Below, piece by piece: positions 19,628-44,582 of a DNA stretch of 64,000 nt (position 1 is the stretch's first letter; every line of letters starts with the position of its first letter). Where the stretch lies: the NCBI RefSeq assembly GCF_963921235.1, contig NC_086097.1:157048001-157112000 (forward strand). Direction: 5' to 3'. Source of the stretch: Mobula hypostoma (lineage: Eukaryota). Both the position numbers and the translations under genes were made by a program. A model generated the notes under the pieces. The model had not been told where the DNA came from. It did no database searches and worked only from the letters and a program-made list of their open reading frames with translations.

Positions 19628-21062
19628 TATATGTATATTATATGTATATTAAACAATTAAACTAAAAAGTTGCAAAAACAAATAATTTTTTAAAAAGTGA
19701 GGTAGTGTTCATGGGTTCAATGTCCATTTAGAAATTAGATAGCAGAGGGGAAGGGGCTGTTCCTGAATTGCTGAGCGTGTGCCTTCAGGCTTCTGTACCC
19801 GCTTCCTGATGGTAACAATAAGAAAAGGGCATGTCCTGGGTGATGGGGTCCTTAATAATAGACACCGCCTTTCTGAGACACTGATCCTTGAAGATGTTGT
19901 CTTGGATACTGCAGAGGTTAGTGTCCATTACGGAGCTGATTAATTTTACAACTTTCTGTAGCTTCTTTCAATCCTGTGCGTTAGAATCACACCACCCAAT
20001 CCCCCCCCCCCCACCCGCCCGTCATACCAGACAGTGGTGCAGTCTATCCAAACACTCTCCATGGTACACCTGTAGAAGTTTCTGAGTGTTTTGGGAAAAA
20101 CCAAATCTCAAAATCCTAATAAAATATAGCTTCTGTCTTGCCCTCTTTATAGCTGTATCGATATGTTGGGACCAGATTATATCCTCAGAGATATTGACAC
20201 ACAGAAACTTGAAATTGCTCACTCTCTCTACTCCTGATCCCTTTATGAGAATTAGTTCATGTTCCCTTATCTTACCTTCCTGAAGTCCACAATCAGCTCT
20301 GTGGTCTTATTGACATTGAGTGCATGGTTGTTGCTGTGACACCACTCAGCTAGCTGGTATATCTCGTTCCTGTGCACCCTTTAGTCTCCATCTGAGATTT
20401 TACTAACAATGGTTATATCATCAGTAGATTTGAGTTATACCTTGCCACACAGTCATGGGTATAGAGGGAGTAGAGCAATGGGCTAAGCACACAACCCTGA
20501 GGTGCACCAGTGTGGAATGTCAGCGAGGAGGAGATATTAAAACCAATCCACACAGATTGTGGTCTTCCAGTTAGTAAGACAAGGATCCAATTTCAGAGGG
20601 AGGTGCAGAGGCTCAGGCTCTGTAGTTGATCGATCAGGATTATGGGAATGATGGTGTTAAAAGCTGAGCAATCGCCAATGAACAACAGCTTGACATAGGT
20701 GTTTGCATTATCCAGGTGATCTAAGGCCTTGTGAAGAGCGATTGAGATTGTGTCTGCGCAGACCTATTGTGGCGATTGGCAACTTGCAGTGGGTTCAAAT
20801 CCTTGCTGAGGCAGGAGTTGATTCTAGCCGTGATCAATCTCTCAAAGCATTTCATCACTGTAGATGTGAGTGCTATTGGATGATAGTCGACGGACTTCCG
20901 GTAGCGCTCATGGAGTGAAGTCGCGTTCTTGACTCGCTCCATTACCTCTGAGTTTTTTTACTCTATGGTCAGCTATACTTTAATTAACCATTAAGGCATC
21001 AATTTTTATAATACTTTGAATTAAACTGAATTCTCTGACAATTGGATGATACTTGATCTGCT

Positions 21063-21278
21063 ATGTCTAAGAACGGGAAAAACAGCAAGGATGGTAAACC
21101 TTCGGCTAAACCAAAAGCTACGGATCTCCCTCCGACTGAATCACCGGTGACTTTGAAAGCGATATCGGAGTTAATTCAGAGGGAAATTTCAACCTCTGTT
21201 AGGGAGATGATTCGTACGGAAATTGCAGGCTTTGTTAAAGATCTGATTCATGCGGAAATCTCAACTAATTTCCAGTAA
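21063..21278 (+). pseudogene. L1 ORF1 N-terminal stub (71 aa), ending at the deletion junction
   Basis: Follows the 5'UTR. MSKNGKNSKDGK start, then a helical or coiled-coil-like stretch, then TAA at the junction. Confidence 0.7.
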
Positions 21279-24200
21279 TTTTTTTCTTTCTGATTCTGGG
21301 TCGACGGACATTTGGCGTTTTCTGCATCCTCAGGAAAAAGATTTTTCCTTTTTTTCACATGTTCATCATTCCTATTCAAGAATTGATTATTTTTTTATTG
21401 ACTCTCGTCTCATTCCTTCAGTGATTAAATGTGATTATGATTCTATAACCATTTCGGATCATGCTCCACTTAAGCTTTCTATTAAAATTATGGCCAATAT
21501 ACCAAACAATAGACAATGGCGTTTTAATTCGCTGTTGCTTCAGGACTCGGACTTTGTTAATTTTATGAATGAACAGATTGAGCTTTTTTTTACAATTAAC
21601 CATACAGAAGATATTTCGGTTAACACTCTTTGGGACACTTTTAAAGCCTATATTCGGGGTCAGATTATTTCGTATTCCGTTGCTTTGAGGAAGAAACAGA
21701 AGCAGGAGGAGATGGCAATTGTGGACAAGATTAAAGAAATTGATAAGAAATATGTTATGGCTCCTTCTGAGGAGCTATACAAACAAAGAACTGAACTTCA
21801 AATGGAACACAGTTTACTACTCTCGTCCTCGATTGTAAACCAATTAAAGAAAACAAGAAGTGATTTTTATGTTCATAGTGATAAAATTGGCAAGCTGCTG
21901 GCTAATCAATTGAAATCTAATTATGTTAAATCTCAAATCAATCAGATTTATAACCAAAATGATCGATTGATATTGGATCATGTGGGGATTAATCAAACCT
22001 TTTGTGATTTTTATTCTTCTTTATATCAATCAGAGTCTCCTCGAGATTCTAAATATATGAATGATTTTTTAGATAAGTTAGACTTCCCTCAGATTTCACA
22101 GGATATGTCTTCTTTATTAGATACTTCCATTACAATGGATGAGATTAAGAATGTTATTTTTTCTATGAATCTGGGGAAAGCTCCTGGCCCTGATGGGTTT
22201 ACCGTTGAATTTTATAAATGTTTTGCTTCTTTATTGATTCCTTGGCTCTATAAGGTTTTTGAGGCTTCTTTGAAACTTGGTAAACTTCCGGAATCTTTTA
22301 ATAGAGCATCAATTTCTTTAATACTAAAGAAGGATAAAGACCCTGCTCAATGTGCATCTTATAGACCAATATCTTTATTAAATGTTGATTCTAAAGTTTT
22401 TTCTAAGTTATTAGCAAATAGACTAGAAAAAGTACTTCCTTCTATTATTTCGGAAGACCAAACGGGTTTTATTAAAGGTCGTTACTTTTTTTATAATATT
22501 CGTACATTGTTAAATATCGTTTATACTCCCTCACAAAATGTTCCTGAGTGTGTTATTTCTTTAGATGCCGAGAAAGCTTTTGATAGAGTAGAATGGCCTT
22601 ATTTATTTAAGGTGCTTGAAATGTTTAATTTTAGCTTGAAATTTATATCCTGGATTAAACTGTTATATCACTCCCCTGTAGCTTCGGTTCGTACTAACTC
22701 TTTAAACTCACCTTTTTTTCCTCTCTTTCGTGGTACTCGACAAGGCTGTCCTCTTAGTCCCCTATTATTTGATATTGCATTAGAACCTCTTGCAATTGCT
22801 ATTCGAGAATCTTCAAATATTACTGGGATAACTCGGGGATTAAAGTCCCATAAATTATCACTCTATGCTGATGATTTACTTTTATATATTTCTAATCCTG
22901 AGAGATCTATTCCTGCTGTTTTAGAGTTATTAGCACAATTTGGTCTTTTCTCAGGTTATAAATTAAATCTTAGTAAGAGTGAACTTTTTCCGATTAATAA
23001 ACATCTTCCCTTATATTATAAATTTCCATTTAAATTGATTAATAATTACCTTTCATATCTTGGGATTAAAATTACTTGTAAACATAAAGATTTATTTAAG
23101 ACTAACTTTTTACCATTAATAGACCATATTACTCAACTTTCATCTAAATGGTTTCCCTTATATTTAACTTTGATTGGTCGTATTAATGCAGTTAAGATGT
23201 TTTTTTTGCCAAAATTTTTATATGTGTTTCAGGCATTACCAATTTTCGTTCCTAAATCTTTTTTTGATAAAGTCGACTCTAAAATTTCTTCATTTATTTG
23301 GCAGAATAAGAATCCGAGACTGGGTAAAATACATTTACAGAAAGCTAAGAGAGATGGAGGTTTAGCATTACCTAACTTTAGATTTTATTATTGGGCTATT
23401 AATATTCGACATATGAAATTTTGGTTACTTGACCGGGACATACTATCTATTCCTAAATGGGTAGCATTGGAATTACAATCTGTTCAGGGTTATACACTTG
23501 GTTCTATTTTAGGTTCATCTCTTCCCTTTGATTCGAAACGCCTTAAGCAGGTCTCTAACCCGATCGTTAAATATGCTTTGCGTATTTGGTTTCAATTCAG
23601 AAAATTTTTTGATCTTAATCAATTCGGGTTAGCGATTCCTATTTTAGGTAACATATTTTTTCCTCCCTCTTTTACGGATCGCGCTTTTCAAACTTGGAAG
23701 ACTAAGGGTATTTTACGGTTTTTGGATTTATTTTTAGATGGTTCCCTTGTGTCTTTTGAACAATTATCTAATAAATATAACTTATCAAGAATACATTTTT
23801 TTAGATATTTACAAGTTAGAAATTTCCTAAGTACTATACTTTCTTCCTTTCCAATGCTTCCTCCTATATATATTTTAGATTCGATAATTAACCTTAATCC
23901 ATGTCAGAAAGGTGCATCGGCTATGATTTATAATATTATTATGAAACTTAGGAAAGCTCCATTTGATAAGATTAGGGTAGATTGGGAACAGGAATTGGGG
24001 CTTACCATTTCTGTGGATGATTGGGGGCAGATTTTACAATTAGTTAATACTTCCTCTATTTGTGCTAAACATTCCCTAATTCAATTTAAAGTGGTTCATA
24101 GAGCACATATGTCCAAAGATAAGTTAGCGCGTTTTTACACGCATATTAATCCTTTCTGTGATAGATGTTCAGGGCAGATAGCCTCTTTAACTCATATGTT

Positions 24201-24549
24201 TTGGTCTTGCCCTACTTTGGAAACTTTTTGGAGAGATATTTTCAATATTATTTCTAAGGTATTAAATATAGATATCTCTCCTCACCCTATTACTGCTATC
24301 TTTGGACTACCTAAAATTTCTAGTAATCTTTCCCCTTCAGCCCGTAGAATGATTGCATTTCTTACTTTGATGGCGAAAAGATGTATTTTACAACATTGGA
24401 AAGAGCTTAATGCTCCAACTACCTTTTTTTGGTTTTCTCAGACGATTTTATGTTTGAATCTGGAGAAAATTAGAAGTAACCTTTATGATTCTTCATTTAA
24501 ATTTGAACAGATTTGGGGACCTTTTATTCGATATTTTCATTTAATGTAA
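21250..24549 (+). CDS. L1 ORF2p (C-terminal part of the APE endonuclease, reverse transcriptase, CCHC domain), N-terminally truncated, 1099 aa open
   Basis: SRIDY and SDH (EN); KAPGPDG, YRPISLLN, DAEKAFD, GTRQGCPLSP, YADD, YLGI (RT); CDRC..HMFWSC. No stops or frameshifts. Confidence 0.93.
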   Translation: MRKSQLISSNFFLSDSGSTDIWRFLHPQEKDFSFFSHVHHSYSRIDYFFIDSRLIPSVIKCDYDSITISDHAPLKLSIKIMANIPNNRQWRFNSLLLQDSDFVNFMNEQIELFFTINHTEDISVNTLWDTFKAYIRGQIISYSVALRKKQKQEEMAIVDKIKEIDKKYVMAPSEELYKQRTELQMEHSLLLSSSIVNQLKKTRSDFYVHSDKIGKLLANQLKSNYVKSQINQIYNQNDRLILDHVGINQTFCDFYSSLYQSESPRDSKYMNDFLDKLDFPQISQDMSSLLDTSITMDEIKNVIFSMNLGKAPGPDGFTVEFYKCFASLLIPWLYKVFEASLKLGKLPESFNRASISLILKKDKDPAQCASYRPISLLNVDSKVFSKLLANRLEKVLPSIISEDQTGFIKGRYFFYNIRTLLNIVYTPSQNVPECVISLDAEKAFDRVEWPYLFKVLEMFNFSLKFISWIKLLYHSPVASVRTNSLNSPFFPLFRGTRQGCPLSPLLFDIALEPLAIAIRESSNITGITRGLKSHKLSLYADDLLLYISNPERSIPAVLELLAQFGLFSGYKLNLSKSELFPINKHLPLYYKFPFKLINNYLSYLGIKITCKHKDLFKTNFLPLIDHITQLSSKWFPLYLTLIGRINAVKMFFLPKFLYVFQALPIFVPKSFFDKVDSKISSFIWQNKNPRLGKIHLQKAKRDGGLALPNFRFYYWAINIRHMKFWLLDRDILSIPKWVALELQSVQGYTLGSILGSSLPFDSKRLKQVSNPIVKYALRIWFQFRKFFDLNQFGLAIPILGNIFFPPSFTDRAFQTWKTKGILRFLDLFLDGSLVSFEQLSNKYNLSRIHFFRYLQVRNFLSTILSSFPMLPPIYILDSIINLNPCQKGASAMIYNIIMKLRKAPFDKIRVDWEQELGLTISVDDWGQILQLVNTSSICAKHSLIQFKVVHRAHMSKDKLARFYTHINPFCDRCSGQIASLTHMFWSCPTLETFWRDIFNIISKVLNIDISPHPITAIFGLPKISSNLSPSARRMIAFLTLMAKRCILQHWKELNAPTTFFWFSQTILCLNLEKIRSNLYDSSFKFEQIWGPFIRYFHLM

Positions 24550-24954
24550 TATTTACCCTTCTTGTTCTTTTCTCACTGGTTTAATGGAGGTCGGGATTGA
24601 GGACGTGATTTTAAGTTTAACTCTGTTTGGTTTCAAGTTAGCCCATTGCTTTGCTTTGCTTTTAGTTAGTTGCACGGTGGGTTTTTTTTTGGGGTTTTTT
24701 TTTTCTTTTTTTTCCATTGATATATATAAAATCTAGTATACTATTATGTTATCTTGGTTTCTTATGCTTAAATTACATTGTTTGTAGTATTTTCTTTTTG
24801 GTATTGTTATCTTTTGGAATTTTATTATACTTTAACATTGTATTAATGTTTATATGGCTTACCTTTTTTGTATACTTACTCAATAAAAAGATTTAAAAAG
24901 AAAAAGAAAGAAAGGATGATAGTCATTAAGGCAGCTCACACTACTCTTCTTAGG

Positions 24955-26159
24955 CAGAGGGCCCTAGCCTTTTTTTGCACTATGGACCGGTTTAATATTG
25001 ACAATATTCTTGTGGACCGGCCAATGTGGGGGGGGGGGGTCACGGTAGGGTTGCCAACGGACAAGAGTAGCAGTCAAATACATTGTGTTTACCCCGAGAA
25101 AGACTACAATGACCATGAAGCCTTGCACGGGCACCTGTGTGAACATGGGTGTACGTGCCGAATTTTTTTCTCTACAAGTTGTTTTTGGCGATTCTGTTCG
25201 TGGTGGAGGGTGTTAATCATGACCGGAATATAGTTGATAAGTGGCTAATACACTCAATTTCGTTTCTAAAAGGGATTATCTAACAAATTTTATATTAAAC
25301 ACACAGCGCATATTTTCCTCTCATGAATATAGTGATAAGTCAGTTATCAGGAGAGGACAGGGGAGCTTGAAGTAAGTGTTGAACGAACTTCCAGAAGTGG
25401 TATAGGTAGGTTCAATATTATTATTTAAAGTTAACTTGGATAGGTATATGGACAGGAAAGGATTGGAGGGTTATGGGTTGAGTGCAGGTCGGTGGGACTA
25501 GGTGAGAGTAGCGTTCGGCACAGACTAGAAGGGCCGAGATGGCCTGTTTCCGTGCTGTAATTGTTATATGGTTATATAAGTCACTTATATGTCAATAGCA
25601 TCATAACATTTTAAATAACGTTTGGATATTAAACACACAGCACGTATTTTCCCCGTATGAACATATAAAATCATTGCAACACACCAATATTGCTGAATCA
25701 GTGGGAGCCCTGGGCTTGTTTCCCTGCAACAAGATGGTCCTATCGAGGGGTGATGGGAGACAGCGATACTCGAAGGGGGTTCTTTATGTCCAGTCTATTC
25801 CGCAATTTTGTTTTCGTTGCATTCATTGTAGAGATTTGTTGGAAATGGAAGCAACGTTTTCAGTGCTTTTGTGGCTATCTCAGGATATTTAGCCTTGAGT
25901 TTGATCCAGATTGCCGGCAGAGATGTTATGTCAAACATACTTTTCAGCCCATCGTCATTTGCAAGCTCGAGCAGTTGATCTTCTTCCCGCGCTGACATGG
26001 GTGACGCGCGGGTAATGACCTCGTGTGCGGTCAAGTTCAACAGTGCGCGTGACAGGGAATGAGGAAAGGTGCAGCTGACTTATATCGTTTCCTCGCGGCC
26101 CGGTAGCACATGCTTTGCGGCCCGGCGCCGGTCCACGGCCCGGTGGTTGGGAAACGCTG
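24955..26159 (-). mobile_element. Non-autonomous hAT (Charlie/Buster-like) DNA transposon with an internal CR1 tail
   Basis: Imperfect TIRs CAGAGGGCCCTAGCC and GGTTGGGAAACGCTG; perfect 8-bp TSD TTCTTAGG. ORF 25795..26040 resembles the hAT C-terminal dimerisation region (WIKLKAKYPEIATKALKTLLPFPT). Confidence 0.92.
25385..25578 (+). mobile_element. CR1 3' tail embedded in the hAT element
   Basis: ttggataggtatatggacagg..ggagggttatggg..ggcctgtttccgtgctgtaattgttatatggttatat. Confidence 0.85.
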
Positions 26160-33282: not shown

Positions 33283-34640
33283 AGAAAAGGAGTAGGTATA
33301 GCCCAGGAAATTAAAGGCCAGTGAGTCTTATTTCAGGTTGATGGAGGAAATCCTGAGAGGCAGGATTTATGAACATTTGGAGAGGCATAATATGATTAGG
33401 AATAGTCAGCATGGCTTTGTCAAAGGCAGGTCGTGCCTTACGAGCCTGACTGAATTTTTTGAGGATGTGACTAAACACATTGATGAAGGTAGAGCTGTAG
33501 ATGTAGTGTATGTGGATTTTAGCAAGGCATTTGAAAAGGTACCCCATGCAAGGCTTATTGAGAAAGTAAGGAGGCATAGAATCCAAAAGGACATTGCTTT
33601 GTGGATCCAGAACTGGCTTGCCCACAGAAGGCAAAGAGTGGCTGTAGACGGGTCATATTCTGCATGGAGGCCGGTGACCAGTGGTGTGCCTCAGGGATCT
33701 GTTCTGGGACCCCTACACTTTGTGATTTTTATAAATGACCTGGATGAGGAAGTGGAAGGATGGGTAAGTAAATTTGCTGATGACACCAAGGTTGGGGGGT
33801 GTTGTGGATAGTGTGGAGGACTGTCAGAGGTTACAATAGGACTTTGATAGGATGCAAAACTGGGCTGAGAAGTGGCAGATGGAGTTCAAACCGGATAAGT
33901 GTGAGGTGGTTCGTTTTAGTAGGCCAAATATGTTGGCAGAATATAGCACTAATGGTAAGACTCTTGGTAGAGTGGAGGATCAGAGGGATCAAAGCTGCGA
34001 CGCAGGTTGACTCTGTGGTTAAGAAGGCATACAGTGCATTGGCATTCATCAATCATGGGATTGAGTTTAAGAGCCGAGAGATAATATTGCAGCTATAGCG
34101 GACCCTCATCAGACCCCACTTGGAATACTGTGCTCAGTTCTGGTCGCCTCACTACAGGAAGGACGTGGAAGCCATTGAAAGGGTGCAGAGGACTGGGGAG
34201 CATGCCTTATGAGAATAGGTTGAGTGAACTTGTTTTTTTCTCCTTGGAGCGATGGAAGATGAGAGGTGACCTGATAGAGGTGTACAAGATAATGAGAGGT
34301 ATTGATCGTGTGGTTAGTCAGAGGCTTTCCCCAGGGCTGAACTGGCTAGCACGAGAGGGCATAGTTTTAAGGTGCTTGGAAGTAGGTACAGAGGAGATGT
34401 CAGGGGTAAGTTTTTTACGCAGAGGGTGGTTAGTGCGTGGTGCAGAATGGGCTGCTGGCGGCAGTGGTGGAGGCGGAAACAATATGGTCTTTTAAGAGAC
34501 TCCTGGATGGCTACATGAGGCTTAGAAAAATAGAGGGCTATAGGTAAAGCCTAGGTAGTTCTAAGGTGGGGACATGTTCGGCACAGCTTTGTGTGCCGAA
34601 GGGCCTGTAATGTGCTGTAGGTTTTCTATGTTTCTATATT
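33283..34640 (+). mobile_element. 5'-truncated CR1 with RT core and 3' tail
   Basis: ORF 33338..33811 has [24 protein letters not shown]. Tail ttttctatgtttctat. Confidence 0.93.
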
Positions 34641-42529: not shown

Positions 42530-44582
42530 CAAAAAGAGAACCTATACATCAGGAGCCAGAGAGGAATTGAAACATGTGCAGAGGGAGCTAACAGAGAAGG
42601 TCAAGGTGGCTAAAGAGGAATACAGGAGAGAGCTGGAGAGCAAGCTCACAGGAGGTGTGGAGAGGCTTGAAGAACATCACTGGCTTCAATCAGCCGAGCT
42701 GTTGAGCCTCAGAATGCAGCCATGAATGAGCTAGTGAGTTAAACTAATTCCTTAATAAGTTTGACAATTGTACTCCTGTTCACACCCCCTCAGCACACCA
42801 GTTCTGGTGCAGAAGCACCCAATACTCCCTCAGCACCAACATCTCCTCTCCTCTCTCCTCTCTCCTCCCCCTCCCCCTCCCCCCTCCAATTCGACATGTG
42901 GATGAAAAATCGGGCTACTATTGTCTACATCCCTTCCTTGCCCTGCACCTGCCATCCGCACCTCTACATTGTAACTGCTATCATCCCAATCTTCACCTCC
43001 CCCAGTCCCCACCTTCCACCAATTCCCCAGTCACCATGGACTCACCTTCACAACTGAGCAGGTGAGAAGGGCTCTGGGGAAACTCAGACACGGCAAAGCA
43101 TTGGGATCTGATGGTGCGAACCCCAAGGTCCTAAAGGAGTGTGCTGAGCAGCGGTATGGAGTTTTCCAGGCATTTTCAATATGAGTCTCAGCCAGGAAAG
43201 AGTCCTGACTCTGTGGCAAACATTATGTGTGGTCCCACTAACCAAGAGGGGCCAACTGAAAGTCTTGAATGACTACCGCCTAGTGGCCCTGAACTCACAT
43301 ATCATGAAGACCCTAGAGAGGCTGGTCCTGCCTTACGTCCAGCCCCTGGCCAGATCAGCCTTTGATCCCCTGCAGTTTGCCTACCAGGAACATATTTCAG
43401 TCGACAATTCCATCATCTACCTGCTGAGCATAGCCTACTTCCATTTGGATAAGCAAGGCAGCACTGTGAGGATCATGTTTTTTGATTTCTCAAGTGCCTT
43501 CAATAGTATAAAGCCCTCATTGCTGGGGGGAAAGCTCTGTTCAATGCAGACTGGCACTTCCCTTGTATTCTGGATACCCGACTGGCAGACCGCAGTTTGT
43601 ACGGCTTCAGAGCTGTGTGTCAGACATAGCTATAAGCAGCACTGGGGCCCCACAGGGGACTGTATTGGATCCATTCCTGTTTACCCTGTATACCTCGGAC
43701 TTTAGATACAACACTGAGTCATGTCATCTGCAGAAATTCTCTGAATACTTAGCAATAGTTAGGTGTATAAAGGGAGGACAGGAGGATGAATACAGGGCCC
43801 TGGTGGAGGATTTTGTCAAATGGTGCAAGCTGAATCATCTGCAGCTCAACATTGTAAGACAAAGGAAATGGATATGGACTTTAGGAAGACCAGGCCTGCT
43901 CTGCTCCCTGTTACTACCAATAGTGACTAAGTGGATGTGGTGAGGACCTACAAGAACCTGGGGATGCAGCTGGATGACAGCCTTGAGTGGAGTACCAAGA
44001 CTGCTGAATACAAGAAGGGCCAGGGTCAACACTACTTCCTGAGGAGACTGAAGTCCTTTGGAGTGTGCAGGCCTCTTCTTCACATGTTCTACCAATCTGT
44101 TGTTGCCAGTACAATCTTATGGTATGCTGGGGCAATAACATCAACACAGGTGATGCCGACAGACTCAATAAATTGATTTGAAAAGCTGGTTCTGTTATCA
44201 GAGTCAAACTGGACTCATTGGAGGCTGTGGTAGAACATAGGACCTTGTGAAAAATCCTGGCAATTCTGGACAATGTTTCTCACCCTCTGCATGCTACCTT
44301 GGCTGAACAGAGGAGCACTTTTAGTGATAGATTAAGACAGCTGTGCTGCTTCAAAGAGTGCTATATGAGGTCGTTCTTACCCTCAGCTATTAGGCTCTAT
44401 AATGAGTCAACCTCGATCCGGGGAAGTGATGACCCCTCCTGTTAGACTATTTGCGGCAACTTACTGTTTTTTTATTCTTTCTACTTCTCTTTTAATATTT
44501 ACTGTATATCTGTGCACTTGTAATGCTACTGTGACATTGTAATTTCCTTTGAGATCAATAAAGTATCTGTCTATTTATCTAA
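42530..44582 (+). mobile_element. Rex1-type LINE (RT pseudogene) with 3' tail
   Basis: NDYRLVALNSHIMKTLERL, DPLQFAY, FFDFSSAFN, GAPQGTVL.PFLFTLYTSDF. Tail aataaagtatctgtctatttatct. Confidence 0.92.

Follow-up and report, generated by a model that had tools for sequence, protein, structure and literature searches.

A very young L1 retrotransposon of Mobula hypostoma with a blunt internal deletion, probably made during its insertion

How does an L1 retrotransposon come to possess both of its termini, a target-site duplication (TSD), and a long open reading frame (ORF), and yet lack its middle? The question is raised by an element on the plus strand at positions 20889-24913 of a 64,000-nucleotide stretch of the Mobula hypostoma genome (NCBI RefSeq assembly GCF_963921235.1, contig NC_086097.1, positions 157,048,001 to 157,112,000 of the forward strand), here called the 64-kb window, to which all coordinates refer. 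For comparison, we used contigs from four of 23 public runs (labels X1, X5, and X7 among them), aligned to 20400-25400; none of the listed runs is recorded as RNA. Structures of this kind are known: the element is a young L1 that carries a blunt internal deletion, i.e., a rearranged, non-autonomous copy. With a probability of roughly 0.64, it represents a very young L1 generated by a one-off end-to-end template jump or join during retrotransposition by an intact ORF2 protein (ORF2p), and the copy is likely a dead end.

The element bears the marks of a regular insertion. The element is flanked by an exact 11-bp direct repeat, GGATGATAGTC, whose left copy (20878-20888) is identical to the right copy (24914-24924); such a repeat would occur at both ends of the element by chance with a probability of about 9e-4. 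When the L1 and one TSD copy are deleted in silico, an open frame resembling reverse transcriptase (RT) is restored on the minus strand (20724-20888, continuing at 24925-24955). It belongs to the decayed RT of an older long interspersed nuclear element (LINE), which we take to be Rex1-like and whose left half matches Pfam RVT_1 with E=0.0012. The 3' untranslated region (UTR; 24550-24913) carries an AATAAA signal at 24882 and an A-rich (GAAA-type) tail, so that the TSD, the poly(A) signal, and the A-rich tail of an L1-clade insertion are all present, and the initial annotation of a compact 4-kb L1 with a perfect 11-bp TSD and an A-rich tail is borne out. Contigs from other copies of the host repeat contain joints of the empty-site type that skip exactly 4036 nt and share 11 letters, but because the host is itself a repeat, these joints cannot show an empty allele.

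The same features identify the machinery involved. A TSD and a tail are the marks of endonuclease-dependent insertion, and insertions independent of the endonuclease (EN) lack both and are truncated at the 3' end (PMC1920257). Because the element at 20889-24913 has both, an intact ORF2p must be assumed to have made the copy; the protein encoded by the copy could not have accomplished nicking or priming itself. The 5' piece lies on the same strand as, and is collinear with, the family, and the inverted 5' piece typical of twin priming is absent. A self-comparison revealed no second copy of the element within the 64-kb window.

The missing middle is delimited by contigs of the parent family, which place a single deletion junction at 21275-21276, exactly where the initial annotation had located it. 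On the ORF1 side, two X7 contigs read AAAATT... past 21275, in the ORF1 frame with no stop among the 10 codons covered, and X5 record 9 runs 65 nt beyond 21275 into the full-length form. On the EN side, the contigs (four from X1, one from X5, two from X7) end in ...TTGAT before 21276, in the EN frame, and X5 record 10 extends 338 nt into the missing piece. Since records 9 (depth 448) and 10 (depth 895) pass the breakpoints into the full-length form, an intact and abundant parent family evidently exists. The two contigs together cover at least 403 nt of the missing piece, within which about 500 nt of EN must lie; judging from the ORF1 lengths that we assume for fishes, its total length is presumably 1.3-1.8 kb. 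The lost piece begins with AA and ends with AT, and because no letter is common to both sides of the cut, the position of the blunt, microhomology-free junction cannot be shifted.

These breakpoints bear directly on the suggestion in the initial annotation that a spliced L1 RNA had been retrotransposed in trans, in the manner of SpIREs or SpORF2. The left side of the junction does end in CAG, like an exon, and human spliced L1 insertions with the hallmarks of target-primed reverse transcription (TPRT) exist (PMC5860796). Alignment to the full-length family form, proposed at the time as a search for either GT/AG borders or microhomology, yielded neither. The lost piece cannot be a spliceosomal intron, because its ends are AA...AT and admit no shift; its opposite strand reads AT...TT, the AT at the EN-side breakpoint is supported by three runs and two sequence variants, and a GT-AG intron would demand two changes at each end. 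SpIREs and SpORF2 resemble the present copy in being internally deleted L1s with TPRT hallmarks and a loss of ORF1 function, but they use splice donors and acceptors, begin their deletion in the 5' UTR, and keep ORF2 whole (PMC5860796; PMC2896524), whereas the present copy has AA...AT at its breakpoints, retains the entire 5' UTR, and has lost part of EN. Splicing is thus rejected as an explanation that is barely credible. The predicted RNA fold across the junction is unremarkable (z=-0.08).

An assembly error, in which the locus would hold a full-length L1 whose middle had been dropped, might be suspected in a family so abundant and near-identical. Yet repeats do not collapse as a clean drop without homology at the ends, and on either side of the junction the copy carries alleles of its own, which makes such an artifact very improbable. 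No contig bridging the junction was present among those listed from the public runs, and the window letters at 21242 and 24579 are without depth in the X1 contigs; contigs drop rare variants, so that neither is evidence of absence. The junction pattern had no matches in metagenome contigs, and 101 pattern matches to relatives of ORF2 yielded none that was confirmed; neither of the two collections searched is expected to contain this organism.

The clue to the time of the deletion lies at the 5' end. The ends of the element had been described as intact, which is true of the 3' end, the tail, and the TSD; the 5' start is refined here, because the single long family contig in this region (X5 record 9) stops at 20892, so that 20889-20891 are probably three additional bases lying between target and family 5' end. 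The last three bases of the TSD, the three extra bases, and the first four bases of the L1 form a 10-mer that is identical to 21300-21309, 24 nt past the deletion junction on the plus strand; the 64-kb window contains two copies and none on its minus strand. A recurrence of this kind has a chance of 1.2e-4 if the site is at most 100 nt from the junction and the extra bases are random, of 2.6e-3 for any site in the element, and of about 1e-2 if the target end snapped back to supply the extra bases. The pattern reads as a putative templated insertion. Because the 10-mer recurs 24 nt from the breakpoint, the deletion appears to be tied to the insertion event, which counts against a later deletion and, to a lesser degree, against an inherited one. 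We also considered that the target has 11 nt in common with the L1 5' UTR, but rejected this clue, as 10% of random 40-mers reach such a match.

The structure would be explained by the following course of events. An EN-competent L1 protein would have nicked the target and primed synthesis on the A-rich tail, as the TSD and the tail suggest. Copying would have proceeded to 21276, and the complementary DNA (cDNA) may then have continued on, or been end-joined to, an L1 5' piece ending at 21275, derived from the same RNA or from another L1 RNA, by a template jump or by way of ligated RNA fragments. A 3-nt match of the target would have annealed near the stalled cDNA end, allowing three bases to be copied from 21303-21305, and a 4-nt match would have re-annealed at the L1 start and closed the 5' end. 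The remainder of ORF2 has kept an open frame as well as intact RT and CCHC motifs, which may be due to the youth of the copy. If transcribed, the copy is predicted to yield an ORF1 peptide of 71 residues and, at most, small amounts of an EN-less RT, the latter more likely from the methionine at codon 81 (Met81) by reinitiation, and would be unable to retrotranspose alone.

The individual steps have precedents. In vitro, human ORF2p jumps between templates and adds bases (PMC10830420), and in cells, insertions with a TSD and poly(A) occur that consist of two equally oriented pieces and have been attributed to a template switch or to RNA ligation (PMC11702581; 10.1101/2025.02.02.635956). These two-piece insertions, including U6/L1-type chimeras, share with the present copy one TSD, one tail, two collinear pieces, and the absence of splice signals; they differ in that both pieces are here L1 in native order, which is why the product resembles an internal deletion, and in that its putative mechanism is deduced from one locus. 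The internal deletions described for tumour L1s are short and tied to 5' inversions (10.1101/2024.08.27.596794), unlike this element, which contains no inversion. The 5' piece differs from X5 at 18 positions and one gap in 384 nt, and its listed differences from the X1 majority (7 in 384 nt) exceed those of ORF2 (15 in 2176 nt; P=0.036). Such an excess might point to a second RNA, but the 5' region is multi-haplotypic in the family and has twice the CpG density, which may account for it as well. At least three family haplotypes are present across 20892-21275 (at 21225-21227, for example, three bases are exchanged in a variant that is minor in X1 and the sole form in X5 and X7), which suggests that the 5' UTR and the start of ORF1 turn over faster than ORF2 in this family.

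The copy is very young. Based on the listed differences (40 of 330 difference rows), its ORF2 part differs from six of the seven listed X5 pieces at 15 positions in 2176 nt and from all eight listed X7 pieces at 5 positions in 1568 nt; the seventh X5 piece (depth 51) differs at 42 positions in 380 nt and was left out as a distant family member. The resulting distance of 0.3-0.7% from abundant family contigs sets an upper limit to decay. In neutral simulations with 0.35-0.7% change, the frame stays open in 5-65% of cases, depending on the indel rate; together with the divergence, this leads us to infer that the open ORF2 frame reflects youth, not selection.

The age of the copy also affects the possibility that a full-length L1 inserted first and lost the segment later in place, by repair of a double-strand break. 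Classical end joining would readily produce a blunt, microhomology-free junction (PMC11702581), and the ends and the TSD are those of a full-length insertion. However, a copy that is at most 0.3-0.7% diverged has had little time for such an event, and the 10-mer match 24 nt from the breakpoint would have to be a coincidence (about 1% given one such site), which renders a later deletion unlikely. The young insertion with one deletion that had initially been proposed as "deleted in place" is therefore retained as to its youth and its single deletion, but the evidence leans toward a deletion during insertion.

What remains of the coding region is extensive. An open frame of 1099 codons (21250-24549, plus strand) comprises nine codons read off-frame from ORF1, followed by ORF2 from about residue 169 of its relatives; it overlaps the 71-codon ORF1 stub and contains neither a stop nor a frameshift, in agreement with the original description of an EN-truncated but otherwise open ORF2 of 3.3 kb. 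The frame matches human ORF2p from human residue 171 (E=3e-159 for the best PDB matches, versus 1e-24 for R2) and a close relative from its residue 169, which implies the loss of about 168 EN residues (about 500 nt). The two closest proteins are 64-70% identical, and one is a named protein of the stingray Hypanus sabinus (67% over the query region). The catalytic residues of the human L1 endonuclease include N14, E43, and D145. As noted at first inspection, the front catalytic motifs are missing and SRIDY and SDH remain: WN, QE[TS]H, and [GAT]DxN, which are present in 84, 83, and 87, respectively, of 87 full-length relatives, are all absent, and the whole APE endonuclease of an autonomous L1 is replaced by a C-terminal remnant (21276-21489) with SRIDY at 21376-21390 and SDH at 21454-21462.

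By contrast with the endonuclease, the downstream domains, whose limits follow PMC13103738, appear complete. The RT domain (22324-23040; RVT_1, E=9.7e-39) has a YADD motif at 22864-22875 with the catalytic aspartates found in all 87 relatives, the C-terminal CCHC motif (24157-24210) is intact in comparison with the relatives, and the truncated ORF2 retains its RT aspartates, the Cryptic WD and FF pairs, and CCHC. It preserves 240 of 252 conserved columns, where the relatives miss between 3 and 18 (median 7). Nine changed columns lie within the coverage of the closest ray protein, which shares five of them. Codon 413 encodes Phe, a hint of unselected change: Ser, Leu, Pro, or Gly occupies this position in 86 of the 87 relatives, with Ser in both of the closest ones.

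Several observations weigh against a one-off origin. The 10-mer was spotted post hoc, the family start at 20892 is defined by a single contig end, full-length L1s often owe additional 5' bases to upstream transcription (PMC2912911), and the mechanism proposed is extrapolated from one locus. Moreover, 21306 is the first internal GGAC of the shortened molecule, so that an inherited deletion would explain the match likewise. Finally, among the 18 listed ORF2 rows, eight differ from at least 70% of the X1 (DNA) depth, and six of these eight are synonymous (neutral share 0.29, P=0.01). This excess suggests that the differences were inherited from a source lineage of coding, full-length elements; the truncated frame, if it were under selection, would show the same pattern, however, and this constitutes the main argument for a copy derived from a deleted source element.

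Such a source element would represent a small non-autonomous subfamily with an intact promoter and 3' end, mobilized in trans by full-length L1 and perhaps making an EN-less RT. Apart from the synonymous majority differences, this explanation is favored by the intactness of both ends and of the 5' UTR, by the conserved columns retained and the changes shared with the ray protein, by several window alleles that occur at X1 depths of 165-780, as expected of a minor lineage, and by the greater likelihood that a random window meets a multi-copy form. There are also precedents in the R2 SIDEs (PMC3414825) and in the active EN-less core of human ORF2p (PMC10830420), and EN fragments complement RT fragments at a low level (PMC4889948). 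Against it stand the abundant X5 contigs that cross both breakpoints into the full-length form, which means that the deleted form is not dominant there, and the four near-fixed ORF2 differences, of which two are synonymous and two are not, one being the Phe at codon 413, a conserved Ser. The residual depths show no trend from 5' to 3' and may reflect recurrent mutation, a 3.3-kb ORF2 is of no known benefit to a trans-mobilized RNA, and in the first BAR test, an RT fragment alone drove no Alu retrotransposition (PMC4889948). We therefore regard descent from a deleted source element as improbable and continue to favor a deletion made during a single insertion.

The deletion also truncated ORF1 and rearranged the start codons. 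The ORF1 stub (71 codons, 21063-21278, plus strand) ends, as the initial annotation had concluded, in a stop codon (21276-21278) created by the junction, and the family frame runs on past the breakpoint; the whole ORF1 of an autonomous L1 is therefore absent. Its position and its in-frame continuation in the family suggest that the 71-codon ORF may be a piece of ORF1. None of 37 candidates proved to be a homolog of the stub, two matches to repeat proteins were judged spurious, and the best scores were 0.75 in the Atlas and only E=0.1 in Pfam. The stub contains a decayed 36-nt repeat (21167-21275) encoding 12-residue units (ELIQREIST / EMIRTEIAG / DLIHAEIST), probably a helical or coiled-coil repeat. 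Upstream, the 5' UTR (20892-21062) is collinear with the family (X5 record 9), and three short ORFs begin within it.

The "new ATG" that the copy was said to have gained at 21250 is an off-frame ATG within ORF1 (His-Ala codons) that was brought into frame by the deletion and now reads into ORF2, but such a gain is at chance level. Among 630 combinations of left breakpoint and phase in the stub, 210 produce an in-frame fusion with ORF1, and a further 108 open a different upstream ATG; because half of the random junctions (318) yield an open upstream ATG, the outcome is within chance. The ATG at 21250 is the seventh of the element, has a weak context (T at -3, C at +4), and lies 26 nt before the ORF1 stop; documented stop-restart overlaps are mostly 1-14 nt (PMC5972666). 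Met81 (21490-21492) is a native in-frame methionine with a strong Kozak context (A at -3, G at +4), and the EN-less ORF2 that it opens has 1019 codons and begins near human residue 240; four off-frame ATGs lie between the ORF1 stop and Met81. Any RT product is predicted to start more likely at Met81 than at 21250.

Comparison with known systems underlines the mixed nature of the copy. It shares with the L1-clade LINEs of fishes and cartilaginous fishes, and with the human ORF2p reference (PDB 8SXT, 8UW3, 8C8J), the 5' UTR, a putative ORF1 in the expected place, an ORF2 with APE endonuclease (here a remnant), RT, and CCHC, the poly(A) signal, the A-rich tail, and the TSD, but it differs from them in an ORF1 of 71 codons, the loss of about 168 EN residues, and the lack of autonomy. 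The R2 and R1 SIDEs of Drosophila likewise join the 5' end of a LINE to its 3' end by an internal deletion, but are short, non-coding, and shown to propagate (PMC3414825), whereas the present copy keeps 3.3 kb of open ORF2 and is known from one locus. The closest counterparts of the frame from Met81 are engineered EN-less versions of ORF2p, namely the core 238-1061, an active RT (PMC10830420), and the BAR RT fragments (PMC4889948): it begins at about human residue 240 and keeps the Cryptic WD and FF pairs as well as the RT and CCHC motifs. Those are laboratory constructs with demonstrated activity, whereas the frame described here is natural and predicted from its sequence. In a search of a partial literature collection, we found no paper on an L1 family lacking ORF1 and EN or on deletion forms of L1 in cartilaginous fishes.

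The parent family is both abundant and young. The summed depth of the X1 contigs, which is not a copy number, increases from about 90,000-100,000 at the 5' end to 500,000-775,000 near the 3' end of ORF2, and a related organism also carries the family. One X5 contig (depth 689) lacks 226 nt toward the 3' end of ORF2 (24222-24449; ends AC..TT) and possibly represents another deleted form or a related family. The first nick inferred for the present insertion (at 20870-20888) is ATCC/AA on the bottom strand. The AA of the human consensus TTTT/AA (PMC2912911) is thus retained, but because the T run is missing, the target preference of this L1 family may differ from that of human L1.

The surroundings of the element are rich in old repeats, with 26 self-matches of more than 100 nt in the 64-kb window. 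A second insertion (24956 to about 25391) interrupts the same host relic 31 nt beyond the right end of the L1 and begins with a decayed form of CAGGGGTCCCCAACC, which is common in the contigs and which we take to be a hAT-type terminal repeat. Other decayed LINE RT fragments are located at 33302-33808 (RVT_1, E=1.4e-23) and 43148-43702 (E=2.2e-8).

If the deletion was made during a single insertion, the element is a single rearranged member of a young and abundant L1 family and matters little. Its 5' junction, however, may record the order of events in a natural template jump, with abortive priming near the stalled cDNA end followed by capture of the L1 5' end, a record that is seldom visible in germline insertions outside mammals. 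Moreover, the frame from Met81 matches the engineered EN-less core of human ORF2p, which turns the locus into a natural test of whether RT-only L1 products arise. A more far-reaching alternative, which we consider a long shot, is a multi-copy L1 derivative of cartilaginous fishes without ORF1 and EN that keeps a selected and expressed RT, either as a natural bipartite L1 that borrows ORF1p and nicking from full-length elements or as a maker of cytosolic cDNA. If the junction were multi-copy and the RT under selection, this would be an undescribed coding, non-autonomous L1, and trans-complementation between EN and RT would become testable in a natural genome.

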